A stretch of 64,000 bases of DNA, taken from NCBI GenBank assembly GCA_964291285.2, contig OZ219787.1, positions 1,856,001-1,920,000 on the forward strand, in the 5' to 3' direction. Source of the stretch: Alphaproteobacteria bacterium (lineage in GTDB: Bacteria; Pseudomonadota; Alphaproteobacteria; Bin95). Shown here piece by piece: positions 41,393 through 57,113 of this stretch; the first letter of the stretch is position 1, and each line of letters begins with the position of its first letter. The notes under the pieces are model-generated. The model saw only the letters and a list, made by a program, of their open reading frames with translations. It was not told the DNA's origin and did no database searches. A program made the translations under genes and the position numbers.

Positions 41393-42642
41393 CGCGGCGG
41401 CTCCCTGGCCGGGTCCTGCGCCGACAGTCCGGAGAGGCGCCTGTGGTCCGGATTGGCGTCCAGGATGTCGCGCGTCGTGAACAGGCGCTTGTGCGCCATG
41501 CCGGCGACGGCGTCCGGGTTGGGGTCGTCGTATTCAAGCGGGAGCAGGTTGATGGTGGAGAGGGCGTATTCCAGCCACTGATCCATCGCAGTGTCGTCGA
41601 AGAGGCCGGCGGCGGCGTTCTCCACACGGGTGACGATATCGGCCGTGTTGAAGACCAGGTCCGCCGCGGCGAGAGTGCGGGGAATGTCCTCGAGCTCCCG
41701 GCGGAGCTTGTCGCGCTCCTGTTCGGTTACGTCATTGAAGGAGGATCGGACGATCCGCGCGTGCAGGGCGTCGGGATCGACGATCCCCGCTGCTTCGGCC
41801 CTGAACCGCGCGATATCGCTTTCCGTGGCCGTTCGCTTGAGGCGCAGGGCAGCGGTCGTGGACGCGCCGGCGCCGGAAGCGGCCGGATCGGGTGTCCTCC
41901 AGGCAGCGTGAACGGCGTTGACATGGGCTTGCAGCCTCGCATTACGCTTGCTCCAGAGTCCCTCGAGACCGCGGTCCATGCGGCGGACGCGGGTGTATTC
42001 GCCATGCGCGCCGTGACGCTCGATCTCCACCCCGAGGCGGCTGCGCAGCCGGCAGGCCAGGCGGTTGCGGAAGGCGGCGCCGATGGCCTTCTTCCAGGAA
42101 TACAGCGGATAGCCGTGAAGGGTACGGAAGCGGCCGTCTGAATGGGTTCTGACAAGATTGAAGACGACGCAGCTGACGTCCAGTTGGGGGTCGAGTTCGC
42201 GGGAAATGTGAAACGGGGCAATCGCGGCGAGGATGTCGCCGGTCTCGACGCGAAGCCCGCTTGCTGCTCTCCCGATGCGTGTGGTGGCGCAGTGGCGGAA
42301 GACGATCGCGGTGAGAGCGATCCTGGCGGCGTCCATGACCGCGCGCTCGATGCGCTTGCGGTCGAAGTCGGGAGAGGTGGCCCAGAGCGCGGAAATCGAC
42401 TTGTCGGGCGAGAGGACGATATCGAAGCCGGGCGTGTGTGTCCCGGATATGGCCCTGCGGGTAAGCGGGCCCGCGTTCTGCGGTGCAAATCCCCTCCATA
42501 AGGCGAGCAAGTCCTTGTCGGGAACCGTCGCCCCGTCCGGGAGATGCAGCAAACCGGCCGGATTGCGCCATGTGGCAGCGTAGGCTCGTTGGCGGTTGGT
42601 ATAGAGGGCCGGGTCGGCCAGCTTGTTGATTCTCGCTACCAC
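41386..42642 (-). CDS. Relaxase-domain-only paralog with degenerate active site
   Basis: GFDIVLSPDKSISALWA and LHGYPLYSWKKA conserved; HUH motif changed to FHISRELDPQLDVS. Confidence 0.82.
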   Translation of the reverse strand: MVARINKLADPALYTNRQRAYAATWRNPAGLLHLPDGATVPDKDLLALWRGFAPQNAGPLTRRAISGTHTPGFDIVLSPDKSISALWATSPDFDRKRIERAVMDAARIALTAIVFRHCATTRIGRAASGLRVETGDILAAIAPFHISRELDPQLDVSCVVFNLVRTHSDGRFRTLHGYPLYSWKKAIGAAFRNRLACRLRSRLGVEIERHGAHGEYTRVRRMDRGLEGLWSKRNARLQAHVNAVHAAWRTPDPAASGAGASTTAALRLKRTATESDIARFRAEAAGIVDPDALHARIVRSSFNDVTEQERDKLRRELEDIPRTLAAADLVFNTADIVTRVENAAAGLFDDTAMDQWLEYALSTINLLPLEYDDPNPDAVAGMAHKRLFTTRDILDANPDHRRLSGLSAQDPAREPPRW

Positions 42643-42948
42643 CTGAAGAGCCTCTGGGGTCCGTGCTCGACTCGCATGGAAAAAGCAGGATGACCCCGCA
42701 AATGAGCGGTGCCAGGTAGAGTCTCCGCTGTGGTCATGCGCCCCACTTCCGCGCGTGATGCCGTCATCTGCCGTGGCGATCCGTAACCCGTTGAAATCAT
42801 TGTGTATTCCGTCGTGCTATTATTTGCACCGCAGGGGCACCGGTGTGCTGACTCCGATCCGCGACCTCAACACGGTTCCATGAGGATAGGCCGCGATCCG
42901 GAAGCTGGCAACCGTCGGGGCAGCCGGGGGATCGGAAATCGGCGGGGC

Positions 42949-43355
42949 GCGGAGGCGTAGTCTTCCGGGTTCCTGCCGGAACCGGAGCTTGCGGAGGGCC
43001 CGGCAGGGTTCCGGATAGCGGAGCCGGTCTCGCGGCCGGTACGGGCGCCAGGGGTCATGCGGGGAGGGCAGGAACGCGAAGCGGGCGAGGGATCGCCGCA
43101 TGACCGGGAAAGGGAAACGGCCCGGGTCGGAGGCCGGTACGGAAAGGAAGCCCGACGCCTCAGGGCGCCGGGAGCATGGCCGCGACCGTCCGTCTTCCTC
43201 CTTCCCGGCCCGGGAGCGAAGCGACCTGGCGCTATGCTCCAGGCATCGCCGGCAGGCCTGCGAGGCGCAGTCTTCCGGGTTCCTGGCAGGGCCGGAGCCT
43301 GCGGAGGGCCTGGCAGGGTTCCGGATAGCGGAGCCGGTCTCGCGGCCGCTACGGG
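42949..43355. repeat. Two ~95-bp imperfect direct repeats (about 42949-43045 and 43260-43355)
   Basis: Shared AGTCTTCCGGGTTCCTG...GGCAGGGTTCCGGATAGCGGAGCCGGTCTCGCGGCCG. Confidence 0.8.
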
Positions 43356-43413
43356 ACGGCGGGAGCGGTACAGGGAAGAAGCCCCGGCGCGGGCGGCGCC
43401 GGGGCTCCGGGAA

Positions 43414-43671
43414 TCAGAACGGGACCGTGTCCGGGAGCGCATCCTCCGGCTGGCGGGCCGGGGCCGCCTCGGCGAGGTCGAACTCCTCGTCGGCGTCGAC
43501 CACCTCCGGCGTCCAGCTGCGCAGGCGCGCCCGGTGGCCCGCGCGGCGCTCGGCGGCCAGCACGCGCCGCGCGAGCTGCTCGCTCTCGCCGTAGTGGGTG
43601 ACCCGCCAGCGGGTCCCTCCAGTGTACCAGGGCAGCAGGATATCCACGGTCCAGCAAGCGTCGGCGCTCAT
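43414..43671 (-). CDS. Hypothetical protein (85 aa), acidic tail ending in PF
   Basis: AGGAG RBS, upstream conserved motif, downstream hairpin. Confidence 0.6.
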   Translation of the reverse strand: MSADACWTVDILLPWYTGGTRWRVTHYGESEQLARRVLAAERRAGHRARLRSWTPEVVDADEEFDLAEAAPARQPEDALPDTVPF

Positions 43672-43895
43672 CGTCTCTCTCCTGTTCGGGATTTGCCCCG
43701 ATCGGCCCCTTCCCCGCCTTTCGCGCCTGGCGGCCGGCACGGCGCCGGGAGCATGGCCGCTATCGCCCGCCTTTCCCTTCCCGGCCGCCCGCCGCAGGCG
43801 CTCTCCCGGCGCATCCGGCCAGGCCGGGAAGGCGCCAGGCCCCGCACCGGTACGCGGGAGATACCCGACGCCGGACGGCGTCGGGTATCCGTGGC

Positions 43896-44924
43896 TCAAG
43901 CCGGCAATCCCGCGGCATGCAGCCGGCGGCGATATTCCGGCGGGCCGAGCCGGAGGAGCTCGTCATTGGCGTCCTTCGCGCCGGGGACGATGCGCTCCAC
44001 CCGCAGCCCGGTGTCCCGGTGCGCCTTGCGGAGCGCGGCCCAGGCCTCCTCGCCGGCGCGGTCGCGGTCCTGCACCAGCGTGACGCGCTCGATGCCCGGC
44101 GGCAGGGCGACCCGGTGGATGCGCCCGGCGGACACGGCGGCCGCGATGGCGACGTGGCGGCGGCCCTCCGGTCCGAGCGCCCGGCAGACCGCGAGCGCGT
44201 CCTCCACGCCCTCGGTCAGCACCGCATGCCGCGCGCCGGCGGAAGCGGACCACCGCACGGCGCCGGAGAACAGCCGCCCGCTGGTGCGCTTCGGGTCCGC
44301 GATCCGGGCCTTGCCGCCATCCGGGGCGACGAAGATCCGCTGCAGCCCCTCCAGCGTGCCGTCCGGCGCGCGGACGGGCGCCAGCAGGGCCGGCAGCTCC
44401 CGCCTCCGCCCGTCCACCTGCACCCAGGCGTCGGGGCGGAACCGCAGGCCGGCCTCCCGCGCGTCCTCCGCCGACAGCCCGCGCGAGGCCAGATAGCGCC
44501 CGGCCGGGTCGTCGCTGCGGACCGCGCGCGAACGGGCCAGCACCGTCTCCAGGCCGGCGCTGCTCACCGGGCGGCAGGCCGCGGCGGACACCGGCGGCGC
44601 CGGGCGCTCGGCGGCGGGCAGGGCCAGGAAGCGCCGGGCCTCGCGCGCGGCCTCCCCGATCGAGCCCAGGTCGCGGGCCGCGCGGATCAGGTCCAGCGCG
44701 TCGCCGCGGTCGCGGCCGTTCGCCCAGTCCTTCCAGCGCCCGCGCAGGCGGCCCTCCAGGTTGACGCGCAGCGAACTGCCCGGCTCGCCCGCGACGCTGC
44801 CCACCTGCCAGAACGGACCCTCGCGCCGCCCGTTCGGCAGATAGCAGGCGCAGACCGCCTCGATCTCCCCCGCCAGCCGCGCCGCCAGCTCCTGCAGCGA
44901 AATCCCTCCATGCATCGCAGCCAT
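43896..44924 (-). CDS. Plasmid primase-like Toprim domain protein, copy 1
   Basis: YLPNGRR, GDALDLI, YLASRGL, LTEGVEDALA, QDRD, KDANDEL. Confidence 0.85.
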   Translation of the reverse strand: MAAMHGGISLQELAARLAGEIEAVCACYLPNGRREGPFWQVGSVAGEPGSSLRVNLEGRLRGRWKDWANGRDRGDALDLIRAARDLGSIGEAAREARRFLALPAAERPAPPVSAAACRPVSSAGLETVLARSRAVRSDDPAGRYLASRGLSAEDAREAGLRFRPDAWVQVDGRRRELPALLAPVRAPDGTLEGLQRIFVAPDGGKARIADPKRTSGRLFSGAVRWSASAGARHAVLTEGVEDALAVCRALGPEGRRHVAIAAAVSAGRIHRVALPPGIERVTLVQDRDRAGEEAWAALRKAHRDTGLRVERIVPGAKDANDELLRLGPPEYRRRLHAAGLPA

Positions 44925-45181
44925 GTCCGATCCTCCTTCCGGGCCGGGGTTCCGGAGCCGCGCCTGGCGGGCGTCAGCCCCGATATCGCCCCGACCAACC
45001 CCTTCCCGGCCTTTCGTGCCTCGCGGCCGGCACGGCGCCGGGAGCATGGCCGCGAGCGCCCGCCTCCCTGTCCCGGCCCGGCTCCACGCCTCCGGCTGCC
45101 TCCGCCCCCGATCGGGCGCGCGCGGCGGAGGGCAGGTACAGAACGATCGCCCCGACGCCGGGGGGCATCGGGGCGATCGGA

Positions 45182-45358
45182 TCAGCCGGCGTCTCCGGCG
45201 TGGTCGGGCTCCCAGGGGAACAGTGTCGCCTGGTCTCCCCAGCGGGGCAGGCTGTCCTCCAGGACGCTGTCGCGGAGGGGGAGCGCATCGAGGCCGAGCT
45301 CGGCAACGGCGTGGCGGGCGTCGAGCGCGTCGAAGGCGGGGTCCAGCAGGGCGGTCAT
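45182..45358 (-). CDS. Small hypothetical protein (58 aa, MTALLDPAF...; below the ORF-track cutoff)
   Basis: GAGG/AGGA RBS; conserved motif 61 bp upstream. Confidence 0.45.
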   Translation of the reverse strand: MTALLDPAFDALDARHAVAELGLDALPLRDSVLEDSLPRWGDQATLFPWEPDHAGDAG

Positions 45359-45407
45359 GTCCTAAATCCTCTCGGTTCGCGGTCGCGGACCGGGATGGCC
45401 GCGATTC

Positions 45408-46157
45408 CGCCCGGACAACCCCTTCCCCGCCTTTCCTGCCTTGCGGCCGGCACGGCGCCGGGCCATGGGGCAACGGCCGGCCGCCGCGGAACCGTTCCGG
45501 GCCGCCCGGCAGCGGGGACGGCCCGGCACGGGGCAACGAAAAACGCCCCGGGCCGGAGCCTCGGGGCGCTGAACGGGGGCAAGGAAAAACCCCGGCGCGG
45601 AGGCCGGGGTCGGGGGGACGGCTATTCGGCGGCGGCCGGCGGCGGGCCGCTGTCGGGGGCGTTCCGCCTCAGGAAGTAGCGCTCGAGCAGGTCGAGCTTG
45701 GCCGCCATGGCGCTGACGGCGACCTCCAGGGCGCGCAGGCGCTGATCGAAGCCGTCCATGCGCTGGTCAAGCCGGTCCATGCGCTGGTCAAGCCGGTCCA
45801 TGCGCTGGTCAAGCCGGTCGATGCGCTTGCCGAGGTCCATGCGGAGCCAGGCGATGAGCGCGATGGTGATCGCGGGCGTCGCCCATGGGGCGAGTTCGGC
45901 TGCGGTCATGGTGCCGCTCCTTTCGGTGGGGGATTGTAGCACGGCGGGACGCCGGAGCGAGGCCCGCAATACTGCCCGGACAAGCCCTTCCCCGCCTTTC
46001 CTGCCTCGCGGCCGGCACGGCGCCGGGACCGTGGCAACGGCCGGCCGCCGCGGAACCGTTCCGGGCCGCCGGCAGCGGGGACGGCCGGCACGGGGCAACG
46101 AGAAACGCCCCGGGCCGGAGCCTCGGGGCGCTGAACGGGGGAACGAAGAAACCCCGG
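45408..46157. repeat. Two ~185-bp direct repeats (about 45408-45595 and 45974-46157) flanking one gene
   Basis: Near-identical sequence from GCCCGGACAA to AAACCCCGG. Confidence 0.88.
45622..45909 (-). CDS. Small TM plus heptad-repeat coiled-coil protein (95 aa)
   Basis: AAGGAG RBS; RLDQRMD x3 from a 21-bp tandem repeat at 45754-45816. Confidence 0.75.
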   Translation of the reverse strand: MTAAELAPWATPAITIALIAWLRMDLGKRIDRLDQRMDRLDQRMDRLDQRMDGFDQRLRALEVAVSAMAAKLDLLERYFLRRNAPDSGPPPAAAE

Positions 46158-46177
46158 AACCCGAAGGTTCCGGGGTG
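46146..46177 (-). terminator. Intrinsic terminator-like hairpin; similar ones near 43375, 45585, 47612 and 49031
   Basis: ACCCCGGAACC-loop-GGTTCCGGGGT followed by TTCTT on the minus strand. Confidence 0.65.
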
Positions 46178-46187
46178 GGTGACAGCA

Positions 46188-47399
46188 TCACCAGCTGGCG
46201 AAGCGGGCCATGGGGGCGGCGTCGGTGACGATCTCGACATCCTCGAGCGTGAGCTTTGCATAGGCGAGTGCGGCCGCGAGTTCCTGCAAGGTGTCCCAGG
46301 TGCCGTGATCGGTACCGGTCGCGATCTCGATCACGGTGTACCGGGACGGCAGATCGGGCATGCCGCGATACTCACGGGAGCGCTGCCTGTCCCGGCACGG
46401 CCCGCAGTCCAGCGTGCCGCGTTCCGGGGGCCGTTCGCCGCAGCGGACGCAGAGGCCGGCGGCCCTTCTGCGGGCGGACCGGCGGCGCCAGTTGCGAAGC
46501 GAGGTCAGCCGGGTGTGCTGCCGGCAGCTTTCGCAGGTGTCGAATTCGGGAAGCGCCGGGGTATCGCCGCAACGCGTGCAGAGCCCCCGGGCGCGGCGCG
46601 CGGCTGCCATGCGGTGGTATCCGGCGAGGCTTTGCTTGCGGCGCCGGTCCCGGCAAGGGGCGCAATAGGGGCTGTCCGGAAACGGGGGCCGTTCGCCGCA
46701 GCGGACGCAGAGGCCGGCTGCCCTTCTGCGGGCCGACCGGCGGCGCCAGTTGCGAAGCGAGGTCAGCCGGTCGTGCTGACGACAGCTTTCGCAGGTGTCG
46801 AATTCGGGAAGCGCCGGGGTATTGCCGCATCTCTTGCAGAGCCCGGCCGTGGCGCGCTGTTCGGCGAGCTTGCGGGGGCGGTCTTCGGAGCAGTCCGGGC
46901 ACAGCCGGATCCCCGCTTGCAGCACCGGGATGCCGCAGCCCTGGCAGAAGCGGCGTTTCTCCCGGGGGACGCGGGTCTTGCGGTCGTATTTCTTCCGGTT
47001 GTCGAGACACGGCTGGCACGCGGAACGATCCGGAGCCGGCGGCCGGTCGCCGCATCGCGGACACAGCCCCTTCGACGCGCGTTCGGCGCGGCGGGCGCGG
47101 AGCATGTCCCGCGTCCGGCGGGCGTGGATGTCGCCGCAGGGCTTGCAGCGGCGCCGCCCGGGCGCCGGGGGCGTCATGCCGCAATCGAGGCACAGGCGCA
47201 GCAGGGAGCGGCGAAGCTTCCGGCGCCGGTTGCCCTCACGGGCTGCGTCGAGGCAGGGGCGGCAGTTCACGCGGCCGGCCTCGGGCGGACGGTCGCCGCA
47301 ATGGGAACACAGGCCCGCCGCCCGGCGCGCGTTGCGCGTCCGGTCGCTGCGGCGGACAGGGTTCCCGGTGTCGGCGGGTGGATGCGGTTTGCTGGTCAT
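46188..47399 (-). CDS. Tandem C4 zinc-ribbon repeat protein (8 fingers)
   Basis: Eight CxxCG-x10-CxxC units separated by Arg-rich linkers. Confidence 0.8.
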   Translation of the reverse strand: MTSKPHPPADTGNPVRRSDRTRNARRAAGLCSHCGDRPPEAGRVNCRPCLDAAREGNRRRKLRRSLLRLCLDCGMTPPAPGRRRCKPCGDIHARRTRDMLRARRAERASKGLCPRCGDRPPAPDRSACQPCLDNRKKYDRKTRVPREKRRFCQGCGIPVLQAGIRLCPDCSEDRPRKLAEQRATAGLCKRCGNTPALPEFDTCESCRQHDRLTSLRNWRRRSARRRAAGLCVRCGERPPFPDSPYCAPCRDRRRKQSLAGYHRMAAARRARGLCTRCGDTPALPEFDTCESCRQHTRLTSLRNWRRRSARRRAAGLCVRCGERPPERGTLDCGPCRDRQRSREYRGMPDLPSRYTVIEIATGTDHGTWDTLQELAAALAYAKLTLEDVEIVTDAAPMARFASW

Positions 47400-47654
47400 C
47401 GCGGCTCCCGGCGTGTCGGTAGCGGGCGCGGCCCGGGCCGAACGGGGGGAAGCCGATCGGACGGCCGGGCGCAGGACTCACGCTGCAAACCCCTTCCCGA
47501 CCTTGGGGCTGCAAGGAGCGCCGCCGCGGGAGCGGTGGCCAGCGGAGAGCAATGGCGCCGGCGAAGACAGACGGGTTCCCCGCCCCGGGACGGCATGCGA
47601 GGGGAAAACGGAAAAGCCCCGGAACCCGCAGGCTCCGGGGCGGAGGGCGCGCCA

Positions 47655-48068
47655 TCAGGCGGAGAAGTCCTCGTAGGCTTCCGGGGGCGGCGCCGGCGGC
47701 CGGTTGCCGCCGCCGTCCGGCTTCCTGTCGAGGAAGTTGATGCAGCCGCGCGGGCCGACGACGATCTCGGTGGCGAACCGGTCGCTGTCCTCGCCGTCCT
47801 TGCGCCAGCTCCGGGTGCGCAGCATCCCGGTGATGTGCGCCAGGCGGCCCTTGGCGGCGTGCTTGCGCAGCATCTTCACCAGGCCGTCCTGGTAGACGGC
47901 GATCCGGTGCCACTCGGTCCGCTCGACATACTCGCCGCTCTGGCGGTCCTTGTAGACCGTGTTGGTGGCGAGGGAGAAATTGGCGACGTCGCCGCCGCCG
48001 GGCAGGCTGCGGAACTCGGGGTCGCCGCCCAGGTTGCCGATCAGGTCGACGCGATTGAGGCCGTTCAT
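47655..48068 (-). CDS. ssb: Single-stranded DNA-binding protein
   Basis: LNRVDLIGNLGGDPE, FSLAT, TEWHRI, G.LRTRSW; AGGGAG RBS. Confidence 0.93.
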   Translation of the reverse strand: MNGLNRVDLIGNLGGDPEFRSLPGGGDVANFSLATNTVYKDRQSGEYVERTEWHRIAVYQDGLVKMLRKHAAKGRLAHITGMLRTRSWRKDGEDSDRFATEIVVGPRGCINFLDRKPDGGGNRPPAPPPEAYEDFSA

Positions 48069-48177
48069 GGCGTTTGCTCCCTGCAGGAGGTTGATTGCGA
48101 GCTGTTGCAACTCACCGCGAAAAGCCCCTTCCCGACCTTTGCGGCGTCGATGCCGCCGAAGGCCGGGAAGGAGGAGC

Positions 48178-48389
48178 AGGCACAGTCGCAGGAGGGAGCG
48201 GCGCCGCCTCCGGCGCCGGTCTTTTTCGTTGTGGATGTCCAGACAGGGACGGCAGGACGTGCGGCCCTCTTCGGGCGCGCGGTTGCCGCAAGTGCCGCAG
48301 AGGCCGGCAGCCAGGCGGGCATTGCGCTTGCGGGGGGCGAGGCCCGGCCGACTGGCGCAATCGTCCGGCGCGCGGGCGGTGCAGGTCAT
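48178..48389 (-). pseudogene. Truncated paralog of the zinc-ribbon repeat gene, reading in frame into ssb
   Basis: AAGLCGTCG...CRPCLD...RRSLLRLCL matches the N-terminus of 46188-47399, then breaks. Confidence 0.65.
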
Positions 48390-48470
48390 GGCAATACCCC
48401 GTGGAACGGAACGATGGAAGGGGAGCGGGCCGCGCGGCGCCCCCGGAGGAGCGCCGCCCGAAGGACCGGC

Positions 48471-48782
48471 TCAGGACCGCTTGCGCCGGGCCTCGGCGAA
48501 GAGGCCGGTCGCCAGGTCGCCCCAGTACTGGATGCCGGAGCCGGCGGTCTTCTCGCCCTTGCAGATCAGGATCTCGTTGCGCGCCGGACGCAGCGCGCGC
48601 ACGGTCGCCAGCGACAGGGTGAGCGGGTGGCCCTTGCCGCCCGGCAGCCGGCGGATCTCGCCGTCGATCGTCGTGCGGTAGCGCTCGACCACATAGTGCC
48701 TGTCCTGCAGGCCGCGGCCGAAGACGTGCGTGAGGAAGGTGTTCGCATCGGGGCGAAGGACGGACGCATTGGCAGCGCTCAT
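48471..48782 (-). CDS. Hypothetical protein (103 aa)
   Basis: AGGAG RBS and upstream motif. Confidence 0.65.
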   Translation of the reverse strand: MSAANASVLRPDANTFLTHVFGRGLQDRHYVVERYRTTIDGEIRRLPGGKGHPLTLSLATVRALRPARNEILICKGEKTAGSGIQYWGDLATGLFAEARRKRS

Positions 48783-49091
48783 GTGCGATTTCTCCTGTTC
48801 GGGAAACGGGCGCGGGAGCCGGTCGGACGGCCGCCCGCGGGAATCGCACCGAAAACCCCTTCCCGACCTTTCGGACGGCAGGCCGGCAACGCCGCCCGCC
48901 GGGAAACGGCAGCCGGTCGCACAGGGGAGGCCGCAACGGCCCGGAACGCCGGGGGCGGATTGCGGGAGATGGCAGCCGGGATGCCGGCGGAAAGCCCGAT
49001 GGCGGATCGATGCCGCGGGCAGGCCACCATGAAAAACCCCTCCCCGGCCTGTCGCCGGGGAGGGGCGGGAACGGCGCCAGCAGAGACCCGG

Positions 49092-49601
49092 CTACTGCGC
49101 CGGAGCGGACTCCGGGGCGGCAGGCGCCGGTTGCGGCGCCCCGGGGAAACGGGCGCGCACGAAACCGAGAAGTTCGCGATGGTTGGCGCGGTTTTCGGCG
49201 ACGCCGGCGGCCAGACGCTCCATGGCGGCCGCCTGTCGCGCCTCCGCCGCCTCGCGCTTCGCCTCGCCCGCCGCAAGGTCCGCCTTCACCCCGTCAATCC
49301 GGGCAGACAGGCGTTTCTCGGTTTCCGTCAGGTCCGCCTTCACCTCGTCGATCCGGTCGGTCAGGCGCTTTTCCACCCGGTCGATCCGGGCGCTGAGGCC
49401 GGTCTCGACCCCACCGATCTGAACGGTGAGACGCCGTTCGACCCCGTCGATGCGGATGTCGAACCAGGCCAGCATGCCGACCAGAAAGGCCAGGAAGACG
49501 CCCAGCACGGTGGCGGAGGGCAGGATCGCCTTCCAGCTGCCGTCGCCAACGACGAAAATGCCGCGCTGCGGGGCCGGGGGGGTGGTATCGGGAGAGGTCA
49601 T
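49092..49601 (-). CDS. TM plus coiled-coil repeat protein (169 aa)
   Basis: TM helix followed by RIDxVExxL repeats; AGGAG RBS. Confidence 0.72.
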   Translation of the reverse strand: MTSPDTTPPAPQRGIFVVGDGSWKAILPSATVLGVFLAFLVGMLAWFDIRIDGVERRLTVQIGGVETGLSARIDRVEKRLTDRIDEVKADLTETEKRLSARIDGVKADLAAGEAKREAAEARQAAAMERLAAGVAENRANHRELLGFVRARFPGAPQPAPAAPESAPAQ

Positions 49602-49773
49602 GGCCTCGTCTCCTGTCTGTCGGGAGTATGGGATCGGAACGCGCCGAAGGCAAGCCGCGCGCGCCCCGGCGCACCCGGAAAAACCCCTTCCCGACCTTCC
49701 GGCGCCGGACCGGGAACCGACGCGCCGGCGGGGAGGCTCCGGACTTCGCGGCCGCGGCGCTGCCGCCCGCCTG

Positions 49774-50790
49774 TCAGTCGAACAGCCCGCTGGCCGCGAG
49801 CCAGGCGCGGAACCGGGCGGGCCCGAGCGCCAGCAGCTCGTCATTGGCGTCCTTCGCGCGGGGGACGATCCGGTCGAGCAGCATGGCGGAACCGGCATGC
49901 TCCCGGCAGAGCGCGACCCAGGCGCTCTCGCCCGCCGGGTCGCGGTCCTGGACGAGGGTCGCGCGCCGGACGCCCGCGGGCAGGCCGACGCGGTGGACGC
50001 GCCCGGCGGAGAGCGCGGCGGCAACGGCGATATCCCGGCGCCCGCCCGCGCCGAGCGCCCCCGCCATGGCGAGCGCGTCCTCGACGCCCTCGGTCAGCAC
50101 CAGGCGGCGCGCGTCGTCCGCCGGCCACCAGACGGCGCCCGTAGATAGGCGCCCGCTGGTGCGCTTCGGCCCCTCGATCGGGGCCTTGCGCCCCTCGCCG
50201 GTCAGGAATATTCGCTGCAGGCCCTCCAGCGTGCCGTCAAGGGCGCGGACCGGCGCGAGCAGGGCCGGCAGCTCGCGCTTCCCGCCGTCCACCTGCACCC
50301 AGACATCGGGGCGGAACCGGAGGCCTGCGGCATGGGCGGCCTCCGGGGCCAGGCCGCGGGAGGCCAGATAGCGCCCGGCCGGATCGTCGGGCCGGACCGG
50401 CGCCGCGCCCTCGAGAACCCGTTCGAGTCCCCTCTGCCTCTCCGGCGGCGCGCCGTCCTGCCGGCGGGGGCGCTCATACTCCGGCAGGGCGAGGAAGCGG
50501 CGCGCCTCGTCGGCCGCCTCGCCGATCGTGGCGAGGCTGCGGACGGCGCGGATCAGGTCCAGCGGGCTGCCCCGGTCCTTCGGGCTCGCCCAGTCCCTCC
50601 AGTAGCCGCGCCAGCGTCCGGCGAGGTTCACCCGCAGCGAGGCGCCCTCCTCGCCGGCCGTGCTGCCCACCTGCCAGAAGTTGCCGTTGCGCCTGCCGTT
50701 CGGAAGGTAGTGGCGGCAGACCGCCTCGATATCGGCCGCGAGCAGGGCGGACAGTTCCTTCAGGCTGTGGGTTGTCGGATCGGAGGGCAA
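49774..50790 (-). CDS. Plasmid primase-like Toprim domain protein, copy 2
   Basis: Full-length paralog of 43896-44924. Confidence 0.85.
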   Translation of the reverse strand: MPSDPTTHSLKELSALLAADIEAVCRHYLPNGRRNGNFWQVGSTAGEEGASLRVNLAGRWRGYWRDWASPKDRGSPLDLIRAVRSLATIGEAADEARRFLALPEYERPRRQDGAPPERQRGLERVLEGAAPVRPDDPAGRYLASRGLAPEAAHAAGLRFRPDVWVQVDGGKRELPALLAPVRALDGTLEGLQRIFLTGEGRKAPIEGPKRTSGRLSTGAVWWPADDARRLVLTEGVEDALAMAGALGAGGRRDIAVAAALSAGRVHRVGLPAGVRRATLVQDRDPAGESAWVALCREHAGSAMLLDRIVPRAKDANDELLALGPARFRAWLAASGLFD

Positions 50791-50854
50791 GGCGCGGCCT
50801 CCCCTTTCCCCGGCCGTCCCGGCGCTGTCGCCGGGACGGCCTTGCGCGCGGCGC

Positions 50855-51217
50855 TCAGAACGGACGGATCCTGCAGAGTTCCGGATCGCGGCGCCCGCGC
50901 TCGTAGTTGAGCACCGCCCAGGCCGCGATCTCGAGCGCGGCCAACAGCGGGATTTCCATGCGCCCGGCCTGCTCCTTCGCGAAATGGAACGCCGCCTCGA
51001 GCGCGGTCTCGTCGATGGCGAGGTTGAAGCCGGACTCCCGCCCGAGCCTGGCGGTCAACTCGGAGAGCTTCTGGAGGTCACAGGTCCGCGGGCGAGGCTC
51101 GAAAGCCGGGCCCGGATCGGGCAGCGGCTCGTAGTCGTACTCGTGGAAGTCCTCGTCCGGATCCTCCCAGGCGTGCCAGTCCCGGCAGTAGCCCTCGAAG
51201 TCGATGACGTTGGACAT
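50855..51217 (-). CDS. Hypothetical protein (120 aa)
   Basis: AGGAGG RBS; acidic N-terminus. Confidence 0.6.
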   Translation of the reverse strand: MSNVIDFEGYCRDWHAWEDPDEDFHEYDYEPLPDPGPAFEPRPRTCDLQKLSELTARLGRESGFNLAIDETALEAAFHFAKEQAGRMEIPLLAALEIAAWAVLNYERGRRDPELCRIRPF

Positions 51218-51296
51218 GCGCGTGTTCCTCCTGCGAAGTTGAGACGCCGGCCGGTCGGGGCCGGCACAGGGGCCGGGCTTTCCTTGTCTGCGGCGT

Positions 51297-52880
51297 TCAT
51301 GCGCCCTCGTCTGCGGCATGGCGCGAGATCAGCTCGAGGATCGCCGCAATGTCGGGAACCGTCTCCACCTCGACGCGTCCGCGGCCCTTTGACGGGCGGA
51401 CCTCGATCCGGGCGACCAGGTCCCGGATGGCGAGCAGGGCCTGCTCGCGCCGCCCGGCCCGCGCGCCGCCCGCGATGGCGCGCCGGAGCCCGGCGACCCG
51501 GTCGCGCATGAACTTCTCCACGCTGAAGCCCGCGGGCGGCGGCGGTCCCGGCAGCCGCTCCAGTTCGGCGAGCGCCTCGTTGCGCGCGCGCTCGAGGGCC
51601 AGAAGGCGCTCGCCGATGCCCGTCGAGGGGATGCCGCTCTCGATCGCGGCAACCAGGCGGGAGATCCCGGCGCCGGCGGCCCCGGCCCTCTCCCGGAGTT
51701 CCTCGCGCCGGACCGCGGTCCCGCGTTCGGCGGCGGCGAACAGGCCGCGCCAGTCGCGCTCGCGCGACAGCATCCAGGCGAAGAGCCGCCGCACGCCAAG
51801 GTCTTCCAGCATGTCCAGCCGGATCCCGCGGTTGTTGGTGCAGCTGTCCGGGTCGCGCCGGCGGGCGAGGCAACGGTAGTAGCCCATCCCGGCGATCGTC
51901 ATGCGCTCGCCGCAAACGCCGCAGCGGACCCGCGCCGTCAGCGGATAGGCCGCCTTGCGGTAGCGGGTCACCACGGTGTGGTGGCGGTTCCTGCGGCGCC
52001 CGACCTCGTCCTGGACGGCCTGCCAGGCCGTGTCGTCCACGATCCGCAGTTCGGGGGCTTCCACGACGGTCCAGTCCTCGCGGGGGACGGCAACGAAATG
52101 GCGCCGCCCGGTGCCCGGGTGACGCCGGGAGCGGGTGCGCCCGTAGACAAGCCGCCCGCAGTAGATGTCGTTGCGCAGCACGCCGCTTCCTTCCCGGCCG
52201 CGCACGGCGCCAGCGGTCCAGGGCTTGCCGCCGGGCCCGGCCACGCCTTCCCGGTTGAGCAGCACGGCAATCTGCTGCGGGCTCATGCCGTCGAGATAGA
52301 GCCGGTAGATGCGCCGGACCGTCCCGGCCTCGTCGGGGTCGATCGTGCGCTGGCCCCGGACGGGCTTGCCGCTCTCGGAGATGTAGTTGGCTATCCTGTA
52401 GCCGTATATGCAGGAGCCGATCATTCGCAGGTCGTGGAGGGCTTCGATCTGCCCCCGGCGCGTCTTGGCGCCGATATTGTCGATGACCATCTCGCTCACA
52501 ACCCCCTTGATGTGCGCATGGAGGGAGTCGACCCGACCGTCCTCCAGGCTGTACAGATTGATCCCCAGAAACCGCAGTTCGCGGTAGAGCCAAGCCATGT
52601 CGGCGGTGCTCCTGGCGAGCCGGTCCAGGCCCTCGACGCAGACGCCGTCGAACCGGCGCGCCCGGGCGTCGTCGAGCAGACGGCGAAGCCCCGGGCGCAG
52701 CTGCATGGCCGCGCCGGTGAGTTCCGGATCGGTGTATTCGCCCGCGATCACGCCGCCAAGTGCGGCGACGCGGTCGCGGCACAGGCGCAACTGGCCCGCG
52801 ATCGAGGTCATCTCCTGCAGGGGCGAGGAGTAGCGCGCATAGATCGCGAAGCGCGCGATGGCGCCGGGCGGTCCGTTCAT
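51297..52880 (-). CDS. Large serine recombinase (resolvase, recombinase and Zn-ribbon domains)
   Basis: YARYSS, DRLAR, YGYR, LNREG, CGVCG...YYRC...C. Confidence 0.9.
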   Translation of the reverse strand: MNGPPGAIARFAIYARYSSPLQEMTSIAGQLRLCRDRVAALGGVIAGEYTDPELTGAAMQLRPGLRRLLDDARARRFDGVCVEGLDRLARSTADMAWLYRELRFLGINLYSLEDGRVDSLHAHIKGVVSEMVIDNIGAKTRRGQIEALHDLRMIGSCIYGYRIANYISESGKPVRGQRTIDPDEAGTVRRIYRLYLDGMSPQQIAVLLNREGVAGPGGKPWTAGAVRGREGSGVLRNDIYCGRLVYGRTRSRRHPGTGRRHFVAVPREDWTVVEAPELRIVDDTAWQAVQDEVGRRRNRHHTVVTRYRKAAYPLTARVRCGVCGERMTIAGMGYYRCLARRRDPDSCTNNRGIRLDMLEDLGVRRLFAWMLSRERDWRGLFAAAERGTAVRREELRERAGAAGAGISRLVAAIESGIPSTGIGERLLALERARNEALAELERLPGPPPPAGFSVEKFMRDRVAGLRRAIAGGARAGRREQALLAIRDLVARIEVRPSKGRGRVEVETVPDIAAILELISRHAADEGA

Positions 52881-52984
52881 GGCCGGTCCTTCGGGTATCG
52901 GATGACCGCACACTCTGGCAACGGGCGCCCCGCCGCGGCAACCGGGACGGCTTCCGCTCCCGGCAGACAACCGGCCGCTCGCCG

Positions 52985-53692
52985 TCATCGCCGCGCCCGG
53001 CGCCATCCGGCGGCCCGGGCGTCCGCCTCGCTGCAGAACCAGCGCTCGCCCTTCGAGGTGTTTATGCGGGTCCGGTCGTAATGCTCGGCCCCGGGCACAT
53101 GGTAGATGCGCCCGTGCCGCGAGATGTTGCCCTTGATGAGGCAGGAGGAACCCGCCTGCGGGGGAGGGGTGGCCCCGTGCCGCCGGTGTATCTCCGCCCG
53201 GCGGTTCCGGTCCTGCCTGCGCCAGCGCCAGGGCGCGGTGAAGTCGCCGGACCACAGGCCGAGCCGCCCGGCGCGGGCCGCGTCCTCGTCCGGGACATAC
53301 CGCATCGACCAGCGCCGGTATGCCAGCGCCAGGCCCTGGCGCACGAGGTCCTGCTGCACGTCCCGCCCGGCCGCGAAGCAGGCCGCGACCGCGCGCCCGT
53401 AGCGGTCGCGGTCCCGGACCTCGCAGCGGACCGGGGTCCGCCCGACGAGCCTGCGCATCGCCCGCGTCGCCGCCCGCCCGCAGGCCCATCGGCGCCCGCC
53501 GCGCGAGCAGGTCTGGCGGGCCTCCGGCGCGTCGATCCCGTGAAGGCGCACACGCCGGCCCTGCACGGCAAGCGTGTCGCCGTCCACGACCCGGGCCTTG
53601 CCGGTGAGGGTTTCGGCTTCAGCCGGCAGGGCGAAGGCAAGCAGCGCGGCTGCCGCGAGAACGGAGGCGAGGCGTCGGAAAAGGCATGGCAT
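52985..53692 (-). CDS. Secreted thermonuclease (SNase family) with C-terminal IKGNIS domain
   Basis: Signal peptide, VVDGDTL, RLHGIDAPE, DRYGR, GLW. Confidence 0.9.
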   Translation of the reverse strand: MPCLFRRLASVLAAAALLAFALPAEAETLTGKARVVDGDTLAVQGRRVRLHGIDAPEARQTCSRGGRRWACGRAATRAMRRLVGRTPVRCEVRDRDRYGRAVAACFAAGRDVQQDLVRQGLALAYRRWSMRYVPDEDAARAGRLGLWSGDFTAPWRWRRQDRNRRAEIHRRHGATPPPQAGSSCLIKGNISRHGRIYHVPGAEHYDRTRINTSKGERWFCSEADARAAGWRRARR

Positions 53693-53759
53693 CGGGGTGG
53701 TTGACTCCTGGAGAGGCGCCGCGCTTTGACGAGCGCGTTCGGATAGGGCCTGTCGTTTG

Positions 53760-54038
53760 TCAGCCATTCGTCAGCAGCTCCCTGATGCGCGCCTTCGCGG
53801 CGCGGAGATCGGCGCGATACATGTCCTTCGCGCCTTTCGGGAGATGGGCGCGCAGCACCTTGCAGGGCTCCCAGACAGCGGAACCGCGGCCGATCTTCAC
53901 GAGCTCGCCCAGAACGTCGCGACGCCGGCCCTTCGCGGCACTGTGCCATTCATGTGCGACGGCAACGGTCCGGCGATCGCTGGCCGAATGGAATGCGTCC
54001 GGCTGCGTGAAGACGCGCCCGAAAACGATCCTGGACAT
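53760..54038 (-). CDS. Hypothetical protein (92 aa)
   Basis: Co-oriented with neighbours; GAGGGG RBS. Confidence 0.5.
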   Translation of the reverse strand: MSRIVFGRVFTQPDAFHSASDRRTVAVAHEWHSAAKGRRRDVLGELVKIGRGSAVWEPCKVLRAHLPKGAKDMYRADLRAAKARIRELLTNG

Positions 54039-54136
54039 CGATCGCCTACCCCTCGCCCGCGTGCCTGGGCCCGGACGTTGCGGGTAACGGGATACGGGTG
54101 TCGGTCATCATTGTCTCCGGTCGATCGAGGTTCCGG

Positions 54137-54316
54137 TCAGGCGCCGCTTGCGATCCCGGCGTCGATTTCGGCCTGCTCGCGCAGCCAGTGCTCCCTGTCG
54201 GTCAGGAGCCGCTGGACGTATCCACAGCCCTGGTATTCCCTGGCCCGGGGCTCGATCCGGCTCCAGGTCTGCGCGTCGCAGTTCGGGCATCGGGGGTCCT
54301 CCGGCAGTATGATCAT
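54137..54316 (-). CDS. Small CxxC protein (59 aa, MIILPEDPRCPNC...)
   Basis: AAGGAGG RBS; translated by hand. Confidence 0.5.
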   Translation of the reverse strand: MIILPEDPRCPNCDAQTWSRIEPRAREYQGCGYVQRLLTDREHWLREQAEIDAGIASGA

Positions 54317-54382
54317 GTGGGACAGGCCTCCTTGGGTCAGTGGGGGGCGGCAGCAGGGGCCAGCGCCGGGTCATTCAGGGCC

Positions 54383-55675
<1,293 letters not shown>

Positions 55676-55840
55676 GGGGCCACGACCGGGTTCGAGGCTG
55701 GCGGCGCCGGCGGATGAGCGCGGCCGTCAGGACCGTGACGATAAACATGGCGACGAGAGCCGGGTAGGCGGTAAAGGCGAATGCGTCGATGAGCACGAGC
55801 AGGTCCGGCGGGGGCTCCCTGGACGGCGTGGCATACCGGG

Positions 55841-56305
55841 TCATGCCGGCTTCTCCGGGTCGGGGCCTCCGGCGCCCGCGGTCCCGGCGGAGCTCGCGGC
55901 CGGCATATCCGCCATTGCCGGGGTTTCGGGGATCAACGCGGCCGCAACCACTGCCGCGCGCTCTTCTCCGAGCACCTCCCGAAGGAGTTCGACCGCCCGC
56001 TCGCGCTTGCCTTCGCGGACCATCGCCCTGAGCTTAGCCTCCAGCAGGGCGCGCATGCTGTCAGCGAGATCCGACGGCGCTTCCGCGCCGGAACCCATGT
56101 CGCGGGCGGCAGACGCCAGGGCAAGGGAGAGGCCGCGCTGTTCCCCTGCATCCAGCACCAGCGGCCGGGCAGAAGCCGTCTCCGCAAACGGGTCCACGGT
56201 CAGCGCGCATTCCCGAAGGAACCGGGCGGCCGACATGCCCCGTTCGGCGGCCCAGGTCTTGATCTGCGCCCATTCCTCCCCGGTCATGGAGACCGTGCGG
56301 TTCAT
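55841..56305 (-). CDS. Putative ribbon-helix-helix protein, paralog B
   Basis: RTVSMTGEEWAQIK..A...GMS..RF; C-terminus close to paralog A. Confidence 0.6.
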   Translation of the reverse strand: MNRTVSMTGEEWAQIKTWAAERGMSAARFLRECALTVDPFAETASARPLVLDAGEQRGLSLALASAARDMGSGAEAPSDLADSMRALLEAKLRAMVREGKRERAVELLREVLGEERAAVVAAALIPETPAMADMPAASSAGTAGAGGPDPEKPA

Positions 56306-56331
56306 GCCGGGCTAGCGGTTGCGCGGTTTCT

Positions 56332-56844: not shown

Positions 56845-57113
56845 GTCGGTTCCCCTCGCGGCTCGCCGGCGGTCTTTGCCGGGCGCCTGCACCGCCGGCC
56901 TTCTGCCGGGCCGGCTTCCGGTGGCTGGCCGAGGGCGCCGTGCAGGCGGAATACAACCATGAACCGGGGCGCCTCCGGAATCTTCCTGACGGCCAGCCAC
57001 CGGCTACGGGGATCGACGGCAATCCTCTCCAGGTAATGCCTCTGCTCCGCTCCGGAGGCCGGCCAGCGTTCGCGCCGCGCAATGCGGCGCACGGTTTCGG
57101 CCAGGTCGCTCAT
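56841..57113 (-). CDS. Hypothetical protein (90 aa)
   Basis: ATGA-coupled to parB and to the next gene. Confidence 0.55.
   Translation of the reverse strand: MSDLAETVRRIARRERWPASGAEQRHYLERIAVDPRSRWLAVRKIPEAPRFMVVFRLHGALGQPPEAGPAEGRRCRRPAKTAGEPRGEPT

Follow-up and report, generated by a model that had tools for sequence, protein, structure and literature searches.

One of the systems closest to the locus described here is CUP/ArdK of the IncN plasmid pKM101, for which the original paper is said to be that of Delver and Belogurov, from 1997. A 13-nt ArdK-site consensus lies at a few promoters there (PMC6289460). Another is Reg576 of the Bacillus plasmid p576. Its description places heptamers in direct repeat, 2 bp apart, at four establishment promoters, and has the establishment genes transiently derepressed after transfer through an autoregulated RHH repressor (PMC6294495). 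Two further sources state that leading-region gene families, SSBs included, are all oriented for transcription from the T strand (PMC11541004), and that MOBF systems have a recognition hairpin 5' of the nick (PMC9868005). Other plasmids thus offer examples of 'first genes in' control that is coordinated, and the array analysed here may be a lineage-specific version of it, a tentative reading by analogy.

The window (the whole 64,000-nt stretch analysed) holds an array of genes that are all on the minus strand and point toward two TrwC relaxase genes, with a large serine recombinase gene adjoining (Table 1). A sequence-only reading had described this orientation toward the relaxase and the neighbouring recombinase. 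That reading had also placed a conserved motif before eight of the genes. The window contains 14 matches to the 15-mer AAGGNNGGGAAGGGG at up to two mismatches, against 2.20 expected (sd 1.38; the largest shuffled count was 7, and 0/100 shuffles reached 14). Eight minus-strand matches at up to one mismatch, far above chance, span 43706-49698; each lies 5' of a minus-strand gene, with 34-90 nt from motif end to ATG. The remaining six matches are one degenerate copy, one offset overlap, two hairpin arms and two sites outside the region. Nor is the motif common genome-wide: the 6.1-Mb genome of origin has 25 exact copies, every one of them within four element copies or arrays, and a reversed-pattern control gives 1.

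Identifiable cargo is devoted to replication and ssDNA handling (an SSB and two phage-type primases), to which the arrays of relatives add a sliding clamp, in one relative, and a ParB-like protein. Cargo types recur as proposed from sequence: the Toprim pair is 66% identical, the TM/coiled-coil pair A1 and A2 is weakly similar, and the zinc-ribbon gene D, which contains an internal 207-nt repeat, has a truncated copy, D', with 51% identity over 55 aa. The unknown array ORFs, for which the sequence-only reading suggested a so far putative anti-defence role, matched no family in Pfam, NCBIfam or PHROGs. The family of gene C comprises 132 database clusters and is multi-copy in a few alphaproteobacterial genomes.

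Table 1. Features of the array and its surroundings, in window coordinates.
Feature	Position	Strand	Remark
TrwC relaxase + helicase gene, 2139 aa	34973..41392	-	
TrwC relaxase-domain-only gene, 418 aa	41386..42642	-	
Predicted oriT core	42815..42850	+	short hairpin, then 7 nt ending GGTGT/G (42842-47)
Non-coding stretch	42940..43355	-	two 106-nt direct repeats, 42940-43045 and 43250-43355, 88% identical
Remnant of lost gene I's upstream block	~43161-43230	-	inside the non-coding stretch
Gene G, 85 aa	43414..43671	-	no family
Motif copy 8	43706-43720	-	34 nt 5' of G
Gene F, 342 aa, phage-type DNA primase	43896..44924	-	DUF7146 + Toprim; phrog_510, E 3e-35
Motif copy 7	44999-45013	-	5' of F
Gene E, 58 aa, acidic	45182..45358	-	no family
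Motif copy 6	45419-45433	-	5' of E
Direct-repeat block copy 2	45394..45595	-	90-93% identical to copy 1; holds motif 6
Offset overlapping motif match	45428-45442		
Two terminator-like hairpins after A2	45545..45611	-	
Gene A2, 95 aa, TM + coiled coil	45622..45909	-	21-nt tandem repeats
Extended -10 TGCTACAAT	45933-45941	-	downstream of motif copy 5, A2
Motif copy 5 (AAGGCGGGGAAGGGC)	45984-45998	-	1 mismatch; 5' of A2
Direct-repeat block copy 1	45959..46157	-	second terminator after D, G+C-rich spacer, motif 5
Two terminator-like hairpins after D	46107..46176	-	
Gene D, 403 aa, Arg-rich	46188..47399	-	about eight CxxC...CxxC zinc-ribbon repeats
Motif copy 4	47490-47504	-	5' of D
Terminator-like hairpin after ssb	47616..47641	-	
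Gene B, ssb	47655..48068	-	single-strand DNA-binding protein, PF00436
D', truncated zinc-ribbon ORF	48069..48389	-	breaks at 5' arm of ssb motif hairpin; in frame into ssb
Motif copy 3 + complementary 5' arm	48125-48139 + 48159-48173	-	hairpin, then CTTTTCG; 5' of ssb
Plus-strand motif matches	48159-48173, 43820-43834	+	complementary hairpin arms
Gene C, 103 aa	48471..48782	-	unannotated family
Motif copy 2	48856-48870	-	5' of C
Intrinsic-terminator-like hairpin after A1	49036..49066	-	3' arm is a degenerate motif copy
Degenerate motif copy	49037-49051		inside terminator after A1
Gene A1, 169 aa, TM + coiled coil	49092..49601	-	
Sigma-70-like promoter TTGCCT-17-CATACT	49625..49653	-	downstream of motif 1; conserved in all A1 blocks
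Motif copy 1 (AAGGTCGGGAAGGGG)	49684-49698	-	5' of A1; 3' arm of hairpin, then TTTTTCC
Second primase gene, Toprim2	49774..50790	-	no motif 5'
Conserved 120-aa ORF	50855..51217	-	between recombinase and Toprim2
Large serine recombinase	51297..52880	-	Resolvase + Recombinase + Zn_ribbon_recom
RHH (NikA-like) genes	55841-57000		
2-mismatch motif matches outside array	39932, 56662		

A motif match occurs in 13 of 37 genomes of the family, and six other genomes of the genus carry same-strand arrays of 4-11 copies. Across 19 sequences, 123/124 sites precede an ORF with a Shine-Dalgarno sequence and ATG, and the spacing is 33-101 nt at all sites but one, whose start call is suspect. Flanks diverge around 106 unique sites while the motif stays constant, its identity at the 13 specified positions being so by construction; proteins differ by 20-30% between elements. 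Downstream, the composite shows a T-rich patch at +15 to +19, a GC-only stretch at +20 to +24 and an A/T fraction that peaks at 0.67 at +27 (background about 0.25), and the A/T window begins 7-11 nt past the motif in 38 of 48 non-redundant sites. Array genes without the motif exist: in two loci, for example, D follows C with none between them. The same genome also holds five copies of a second element family, every site of which has the variant GGGAAAGGG, again before D, C and ssb genes. The repeated upstream element behaves like a shared control sequence, as the earlier reading had suggested.

A scan of 41000-56000 returned 15 terminator-like sites against 5.7 expected (sd 2.5). The proposed hairpins at gene ends are strong after the genes ending at 49092, 47655, 46188 and 45622; at the three remaining genes the 3' hairpins are G+C-rich, with a weak or absent T run. 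The ~185-bp direct repeats between genes were likewise recovered, as segments 45394-45462 and 45959-46027 (90% identical) and 45523-45595 and 46085-46157 (93%). In the array's origin-distal half the motif is itself the 3' arm of a terminator-like hairpin (54 of 105 unique sites); these sites include 13/13 ssb, 10/10 C and 7/7 H sites. Of the origin-proximal sites, those of E, F, G and I, 0/37 show a complementary arm nearby and yet the motif stays intact, which argues for selection on sequence rather than pairing.

Nine aligned elements share CA(C/G)ACC and a covarying 5-6-bp hairpin ~190 nt 5' of TrwC. Read on the other strand, this covarying hairpin with GGT(G/C)TG after it is conserved and, on comparison with the R388 and F nick sequences, looks like a MOBF nick region with a GT(G/C)T-type box. 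From this resemblance and conservation, the nick, in position and strand, is predicted near 42846/42847. Because the oriT-like hairpin and nick-like box sit between the array and the relaxase genes, the array block is supported as the leading region, the part transferred first, of a mobile element of MOBF type (TrwC), in line with the plasmid-type leading region first proposed; its cargo includes ssb and the two primases. Given the orientation of the array genes, the predicted transferred strand would be their template.

Sigma-70-like promoters were identified downstream of the motif only at A1, A2 and two H blocks, and no known sigma-factor -35/-10 pair fits within the motif composite. At A1 and A2 the motif starts 38-54 nt 5' of the identifiable -35, at variable distance, so it is not part of that promoter. 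Since every gene ends in a hairpin, most genes need another initiation signal. Our preferred reading, with a probability of about 0.4 and by analogy with CUP/ArdK or Reg576, is that terminator and promoter/operator together form a module that defines an establishment regulon. Such a module starts with the invariant 15-mer, the T-rich stretch YTKTTCGGG and, at a fixed distance, a weak A/T patch; a short leader with a Shine-Dalgarno sequence comes next, and a G+C-rich hairpin closes a unit of mostly one gene. The 25-35-nt composite would be the shared promoter/operator core, recognised by a sequence-specific DNA-binding factor. The ssb, primase, zinc-ribbon and small unknown genes would stay off while the element is resident and be switched on jointly once it enters a new cell. 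Where the origin-distal 15-mer doubles as 3' arm of the preceding gene's terminator, units would be insulated. Recombination between motif copies would add, remove or move whole modules, as the motif is the only sequence common to them.

The anatomy, its conservation, the rules of strand and position and the module junctions are observed; that the composite acts as promoter/operator, that a factor exists and what it might be, we infer from this arrangement. The element-specific variant suggests that the factor comes from the element and not from the host, and a putative element-encoded, motif-recognising protein is most likely; alternatively, gene conversion could keep the variant uniform within an element. 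No regulator-like gene has the motif before it. A signal at the level of RNA or ssDNA would also be compatible with the 100% sense-strand orientation.

In the ssDNA case, the motif's complement on the incoming transferred (+) strand would be the start site of a primer RNA or transcript, with a hairpin at distal sites. The starter could be one of the element's primases, a co-transferred protein or a host enzyme, and gene and promoter would be made double-stranded or expressed once entered. This would resemble Frpo/ssi of F, and ssiA/ssiB with RepB' of RSF1010. The strict strand specificity suits it, as do confinement of the motif to the 6-10 kb adjoining the predicted nick, its place 5' even of the A1/A2 promoters, where a priming site could precede promoter and gene, cargo comprising SSB and two phage-type primases, joined by a sliding clamp in one relative, and the co-residence of an element-specific variant in one cell. 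Several Frpo-like elements per leading region or island are known (PMC11541004). Yet the Frpo-type ssDNA promoter of the sequence-only reading is not supported, because hairpins are absent at half of the sites, cover only the 15-mer where present, and permit a -35/-10 duplex at none. In addition, the second element family and another species' D-C-ssb loci have the motif with no primase gene nearby, and the motif constantly occupies the gene-proximal end of the intergenic space, past the terminators, a placement that a priming site does not need. DnaG/P4-type primases are known to recognise trinucleotides, not 15-mers. We consider initiation on the single strand unlikely. The motif could instead act in the transcript, as 3' arm of regulated intergenic terminators or as a leader operator for an array protein such as D, with transcription from a few sigma-70-like promoters, read-through and perhaps an RNA-binding antiterminator. 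This is, in our judgement, quite unlikely. It would account for T-rich tails at the hairpin sites and for the scarcity of identifiable promoters, and in other genera a single leader, conserved and bearing a conserved hairpin, precedes gene C, its 5' part resembling the motif composite. Processive antitermination is reportedly one way in which the pLS20 family controls establishment genes. That family is reported to regulate them 'in two different ways' (PMC8708921). A strand test on 40 hairpins counted 50 G-T against 33 A-C mismatches, a difference too small to favour either strand clearly. But the 15-mer is intact at 37/37 E, F, G and I sites despite the missing 5' arm; invariance falls on the 3' arm, the last part to emerge and a poor antiterminator target; transcripts started at the A1/A2 promoters lack the motif; and no Rfam family matches.

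Modules are indeed gained and lost at the motif. Array homology switches there: among pairs alike upstream and different downstream, identity directly after the motif is 0.68 against a background of 0.66, while pairs alike downstream reach 0.80. Module J is found in two contexts, D follows ssb only in the genome of origin, and the truncated copy of D breaks off where a motif hairpin arm lies. The integron-like shuffling proposed earlier thus stands in so far as modules come and go and occasionally change place, the junctions lying at the motif; in the comparison of cassette order across related elements, the contexts of J and D vary, but the rest is collinear. That a site-specific system, perhaps the adjacent serine recombinase, uses the motif for crossover and makes the array an integron-like cassette platform is very improbable, even though every related element of the same type that extends that far has the recombinase in synteny. 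Motif-bearing D-C-ssb sets occur without it (five copies in the same genome, three loci in another species), and the switch point is an asymmetric 15-mer, whereas serine recombinases use dyad-symmetric sites with crossover at the centre. Homologous recombination can occasionally use 25-45 bp of near-identity. Tyrosine integrase and attC features are absent, and nothing ties module exchange to the serine recombinase.

Setting the establishment-regulon reading beside described systems, the array shares with integrons same-strand small genes, a repeated junction element, a recombinase at one end and variable content among relatives. It differs in that the recombinase is of the serine rather than tyrosine type, the element lies 5' of each gene without attC-type structure or core sites, terminators separate the genes, order is largely collinear and related arrays lack the recombinase. 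As with Frpo/ssi of F-like plasmids, the genes lie in a leading region and are readable from the transferred strand, an element stands 5' of ssb and there are several per island (PMC11541004); here, in contrast, there is no long imperfect hairpin with -35/-10 boxes, and half of the sites are hairpin-free. As at the MOBF origins of R388 TrwC, F TraI and pKM101 TraI, a TrwC-family relaxase adjoins a short recognition hairpin with a conserved GT(G/C)T-type box ~7 nt past it, and the array is on the first-entering side (PMC9868005), although the nick here is predicted, this copy has two tandem relaxase genes and NikA-like accessory genes are 13 kb away. CUP/ArdK likewise has repeated upstream sequences in a leading region, where one plasmid-encoded DNA-binding protein co-regulates establishment genes; sequence or protein homology to it was not found, and here the copies come one to a gene, strictly in the same orientation, and behave as module boundaries. 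Relative to Reg576, the motif has an unrelated sequence, the units number 8-11 as opposed to four promoters, most units have no identifiable sigmaA/sigma-70 promoter, no RHH gene has the motif before it, the repressor is putative only and half of the sites also serve as arms of terminators. Like p576, however, this element repeats a short conserved motif before several clustered establishment genes; half-sites there are direct repeats 9 bp apart, and here AAGG stands at motif positions 1 and 10; and the RHH repressor there has a possible counterpart in the RHH genes of the element here.

Each of the eight minus-strand genes of the array (A1, C, B, D, A2, E, F and G, B being ssb) is preceded by a conserved 15-mer, AAGGNNGGGAAGGGG, so that upstream sequence is shared by 8/8 genes, as in establishment regulons. 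The window contains 14 matches to this motif at up to two mismatches, whereas 2.2 would be expected and none of 100 shuffles attained so many, and the eight copies with at most one mismatch are those upstream of the array genes. Other parts of the sequence-only reading are also borne out. A scan found 15 terminator-like sites where 5.7 were expected, the direct repeats upstream of A2 and E span ~185-200 bp at 90-93% identity, and protein comparisons confirm the Toprim, TM/coiled-coil and zinc-ribbon paralogue pairs among the recurring cargo. That the motif might be a genome-wide word is excluded: the 6.1-Mb genome has 25 exact copies, every one of them inside one of four arrays, and a reversed-pattern control gave one match in the same genome. 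The arrays belong to four copies of one IS-flanked segment (window 38289-62494, 97-99.9% identity). The genome is very rich in IS elements.

At least one motif match is present in 13 of 37 family genomes, this genome counted: within the same genus 10 of the 16 other genomes have one, in a second genus none of 10 and in a third genus 2 of 10; the order-level scan covered the same 37 genomes. Same-strand arrays of 4-11 copies occur in six other genomes, and 15 loci of relatives were taken for comparison. In the 19 sequences of the site analysis, 123 of 124 motif sites are followed by a Shine-Dalgarno-like sequence, an ATG and an ORF of high third-position G+C, at a motif-to-ATG distance of 33-101 nt with the exception of one site whose start call is suspect. 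The 13 specified positions are invariant in 106 unique sites, by construction of the search, and the flanks diverge. A pattern scan of the whole collection gave, among the matches listed, a single match per locus with one exception, in unrelated taxa, and is uninformative on arrays. A distant blastn of 42600-50000 against PLSDB returned 74 records, in which the 25 matches listed are to ssb only (66-68% identity), and no related annotated plasmid was found in that search.

Because the DNA is ~70% G+C, genes were called by third-position G+C and by reading of the minus strand. The large serine recombinase has the domains typical of its class (PF00239, 3.9e-22; PF07508, 3.4e-24; PF13408, 3.6e-08), and both Toprim proteins match the phage DNA-primase family phrog_510 over most of their length (E 1e-30 and 3e-35). 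The relaxase domains of the tandem TrwC genes are 45% identical, and the long TrwC protein has ~1500 residues with no Pfam match; related elements carry one TrwC gene or both. Pfam, NCBIfam and PHROGs runs, in which not each ORF was set against each library, named no family for C, E, G, H, I, J, L, M, the 120-aa ORF or a 92-aa ORF. For protein D, Atlas leads other than its own cluster are just 'double zinc ribbon', at <0.9. A truncated zinc-ribbon gene copy (48069-48389, minus strand), 51% identical to the N-terminus of D, breaks off precisely at the 5' arm of the hairpin formed by the ssb motif. It is in frame with ssb, and the lack of a stop codon between them yields a 244-aa fused reading frame.

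Coordinates of window features, repeated segments and related loci
Feature	Position	Strand	Remarks
Large serine recombinase	52880-51297	minus	Resolvase + Recombinase + zinc ribbon
Conserved 120-aa ORF	50855-51217	minus	between serine recombinase and DUF7146 + Toprim gene
DUF7146 + Toprim gene	50790-49774	minus	
A1, TM/coiled coil	49601-49092	minus	motif upstream
C, 103 aa	48782-48471	minus	motif upstream
B, SSB	48068-47655	minus	motif upstream
D, multi-zinc-ribbon protein, 403 aa	47399-46188	minus	motif upstream
A2, TM/coiled coil	45909-45622	minus	motif upstream
E, 58 aa	45358-45182	minus	motif upstream
F, second Toprim protein	44924-43896	minus	motif upstream
G, 85 aa	43671-43414	minus	motif upstream
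Non-coding DNA, 770 nt			between G and relaxase-domain-only TrwC gene
TrwC gene, relaxase domain only, 418 aa	42642-41386	minus	
TrwC-helicase gene, 2139 aa	41392-34973	minus	
A1 promoter (predicted)			downstream of motif; TTGCCT-17-CATACT
A2 promoter (predicted)			downstream of motif; TGCTACAAT
Other copies of leading-region segment, same genome	C2:1-14149; C2:455880-480094; C5:7904-34071		
Second-family loci (L136, L137)	C2:248068-250053; C2:443064-445054; C2:1213719-1215709; C1:191222-193212; C4:599424-601083		
C leader, example	L148:1815-1939	minus	
C leader, example	L151:1388-1512	plus	

Related elements share a conserved architecture, at 67-87% protein identity, of nuclease, serine recombinase, 120-aa ORF, primase, array, non-coding DNA and TrwC. 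The nuclease, a secreted-type staphylococcal-nuclease homologue, lies upstream of the recombinase at 52985-53767 (minus strand), with synteny kept in related elements. A DUF5131 (phage Gp37/Gp68-like) gene is also found upstream of the recombinase (54383-55675, minus strand), and downstream of the relaxase genes 29967-34757 (minus strand) encodes a protein of 1596 aa that combines DprA-like (phrog_768, E 2e-48) and YAcAr/SLOG domains.

The genes downstream of motifs fall into families A to O, which extend beyond those of the window to a DnaN-like sliding clamp and a ParB-like protein. The order in this genome is A C B D A E F G; relatives have D C D H B A E F G I, A D C D A E F G, A D C K H B A E F G I, A D C J H B E, and A J N O. 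These orders are largely collinear and differ by whole modules. Downstream of one and the same unit, the end of D plus hairpin arm, lies C, H, K or A2, and the DNA upstream of gene J is unrelated in two loci; for both the D-end unit and J, the switch point is at the motif. Since an ungapped breakpoint count was confounded by indels, we relied on gapped comparison of the junctions. In pairs with like upstream and different downstream genes, identity drops directly after the motif to 0.68 at +15..+29 and 0.62 at +30..+89, the level of the background (0.66 and 0.60), while pairs with like downstream genes stay at 0.80; with a background of ~0.6, this contrast is modest. The proposal that the array is shuffled at its repeats thus survives in part: comparison with relatives reveals module differences and cassette variation with junctions at the motif, but most differences are modules that one array has and another lacks, and only one module has clearly moved.

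A weight matrix built from the sites of other genomes revealed five further loci in this genome in which AAGGTSGGGAAAGGG or AAGTTTGGGAAAGGG precedes D, C and ssb. This second family has a one-letter variant of the motif, GGGAAAGGG, and its D, C and ssb genes lie directly downstream of a different TrwC relaxase (1444-1518 aa, ~30% identical to that of the window); the 18-kb stretches examined contain no serine recombinase or primase gene. D-C-ssb sets that carry the exact motif also occur in a third species, where the stretches covered include none of the genes queried. D, C and ssb thus form a conserved core. Protein C represents an unannotated family of 132 database clusters; of 401 genomes sampled from the class, 9 have it, with up to 13 matches per genome. 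Its AlphaFold model (pLDDT 67.8) has no Foldseek match in the PDB at E <=0.001, the best being E 0.19. In other genera, a single conserved leader, rGAGG-N5-G..GGCCGTGAGCGGGGCGGCGG, a variable inner hairpin and then CCGCCGTTC, is located ~100 nt upstream of C homologues (L138-L167). The purine and pyrimidine boxes around this hairpin look complementary in some sequences. The leader has no Rfam match at E up to 0.1 in 12 loci, and may represent a cis-regulatory element not described before. The composite in which the motif is embedded is similar to the 5' part of this leader, a likeness by which an ancestral leader element seems to have been copied before nearly every leading gene of this genus.

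A predicted oriT bears on whether the array is a leading region. In nine elements, an invariant CA(C/G)ACC ~190 nt upstream of the first TrwC gene adjoins a 5-6-bp hairpin with covarying arms (TGCACC/GGTGCA, TGCATT/AATGCA, TGCAAT/ATTGCA). On the plus strand of the window, this reads as the hairpin and then 7 nt ending in GGT(G/C)T/G. The R388 relaxase cuts after GTCT and that of F after GTGT. This hairpin and conserved segment beside a TrwC relaxase (domain E 1e-39 and 4e-59) are the features expected of a MOBF (TrwC) oriT. The hairpin bound by MOBF relaxases lies 5' of the nick (PMC9868005). On the opposite strand, the stretch 3' of the hairpin is A/T-rich and without conservation; we therefore predict a nick near 42846/42847 of the plus strand. 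Such a nick would bring the array in first and the relaxase genes last, and all array genes would have the transferred strand as their template. The location expected of Frpo-type elements, a leading region whose genes are templated by the transferred strand, is found on this inferred nick strand only. Samuel et al. describe the same orientation for SSBs and other leading-region families (PMC11541004). A coupling-protein gene (PF02534) is absent from the window's copy and accompanies the copies on contigs 2 and 5, 14-16 kb past the end of the shared segment. A search of the variant elements for the oriT-like pattern seen here found no match. The block upstream of gene I in five related arrays remains at 43161-43230 (minus strand) without motif or gene, and looks like a deletion beside the oriT-side direct repeats.

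The composite has the order AAAGG(T/C)SGGGAAGGGG, YTKTTCGGG, a G+C-only stretch and an A/T patch. Across 48 non-redundant sites, A/T accounts for a fraction of 0.52-0.83 at +15..+19, falls to 0.04-0.19 at +20..+24 and then peaks at 0.67 at +27 (background ~0.25); an A/T-rich 5-mer starts 7-11 nt past the motif in 38 of the 48. In motif-aligned sites from 0 to +30, A/T positions fall at about 0-1, 9-10, 16-19 and 26-29, with G+C only elsewhere. This spacing is close to one helical turn, as if a protein were in contact with one side of the double helix.

Two classes of site can be distinguished. At 54 of the 105 unique sites, the GGGAAGGGG core forms a hairpin with an arm of the CCCCTTCCC type up to 60 nt upstream, and a T-rich tail comes next (mean 2.7-5.3 T within the next 8 nt per gene family; 6 in a single-site family). 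This class comprises 13/13 B (ssb), 10/10 C, 7/7 H and 9/12 D sites and half of A, and occupies the origin-distal half of the arrays. The bare class, families E, F, G and I, occupies the proximal half and has the complementary arm in 0 of 37 sites; the 3' arm is therefore kept for its sequence and not for pairing. With a G+C-rich hairpin followed by a T run, the distal class has the form of putative Rho-independent terminators, and most likely acts in termination too. Separate terminator-like hairpins lie 3' of four genes, and there is a hairpin at the end of every gene. Folding of all intergenic blocks on both strands yielded a hairpin that spans the 15-mer alone. The suggestion of an Frpo/ssi-type single-stranded promoter fails on structure, given this class division. 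Nor is there a TTGACA/TATAAT-like pair in or beside the stem to serve as an Frpo duplex promoter. Mismatch counts in 40 hairpins (G-T 50 versus A-C 33) are indecisive as to which strand folds, and Rfam gave no match in the window at gathering thresholds. A sigma-70-type weight matrix found convincing promoters only at A1, A2 and two H blocks, downstream of the motif. It did not fit the composite, nor did sigma-54, ECF, RpoH or FliA patterns, compared by eye with consensus sequences.

Our leading interpretation, to which we assign a probability of roughly 0.4, is that the composite is a transcription-initiation and control module read by an element-specific DNA-binding factor. The composite is a fixed unit of ~35 nt with two to three boxes; its co-orientation with the gene is obligatory and its distance to the start codon variable; most genes have no other promoter and every gene has a hairpin at its 3' end; and an element-specific one-letter variant shares the same cell. 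These features all fit such a module. If the A/T patch served as a -10-like box, the 15-mer would lie at about -37 to -23, where a bound repressor would block RNA polymerase. Against this reading, no known sigma pattern fits, and at A1 and A2 the motif is upstream of a recognizable promoter at variable distance. The latter arrangement would better suit a priming or single-strand initiation signal, with which a cargo of two primases, SSB and clamp also agrees. We nevertheless consider priming doubtful, as the hairpin is absent at half of the sites and motif arrays are known without any primase gene. A quite improbable form of it is gene-by-gene priming, in which a sequence-specific initiator would start RNA at the motif just behind each leading gene as it enters on the transferred strand. 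The role of initiator would fall to one of the two primases of the element, or to protein D acting as loader, and each promoter-plus-gene unit would be made duplex, or transcribed, separately within seconds. This would amount to an element-encoded, addressable priming system for the leading region.

A role at the RNA level, as terminator, antiterminator or leader operator, fits the distal class but neither the bare class nor the A1 and A2 transcripts, and is unlikely. That module junctions coincide with the motif could alternatively mean that it is a dedicated site of the serine recombinase. This is the least credible reading: some arrays have no recombinase, the crossover point is asymmetric, gene order is collinear, and homologous exchange between 25-45-bp repeats would be enough.

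To our knowledge, detailed understanding of leading-region control is limited to a few enterobacterial and Bacillus plasmids. Co-regulation of leading-region genes that share repeated upstream elements is itself already known. Beside the literature covered, that on leading-region regulation, what is new here is one motif per gene over 8-11 units; an invariant purine-rich 15-mer with double use as a putative terminator arm and a role as module joint; two co-resident specificity variants; and an unannotated D-C-ssb core. A high-G+C alphaproteobacterial element family shows an unusually regular solution, a 15-mer per gene that is a putative terminator arm at half of its sites. The 15-mer provides a compact tag by which leading regions, with their unknown early genes, could be located in a group that has no such annotation, and the arrays offer a natural test of the level, double-strand, single-strand or RNA, at which early genes are switched. 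The two co-resident families with one-letter variants are a ready-made specificity experiment.

The closest worked example is p576 (Reg576). In that plasmid, four establishment promoters carry heptamers in direct repeat, 2 bp apart, which are bound by an RHH repressor that regulates its own gene, and expression of the establishment genes is transient after transfer (PMC6294495). Here, AAGG recurs 9 bp apart in the motif, and the element has RHH genes: two NikA-like genes at 55841-57000, with another beside the variant arrays, none of them preceded by the motif. The CUP/ArdK system of IncN plasmids follows the same regulon logic (PMC6289460). Like integrons, related arrays vary in cassette content and order with junctions at a repeated site. 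Unlike integrons, which combine a tyrosine integrase (IntI) with attC sites 3' of cassettes, these elements have a recombinase of the serine type and an asymmetric, purine-rich 15-mer 5' of their genes.
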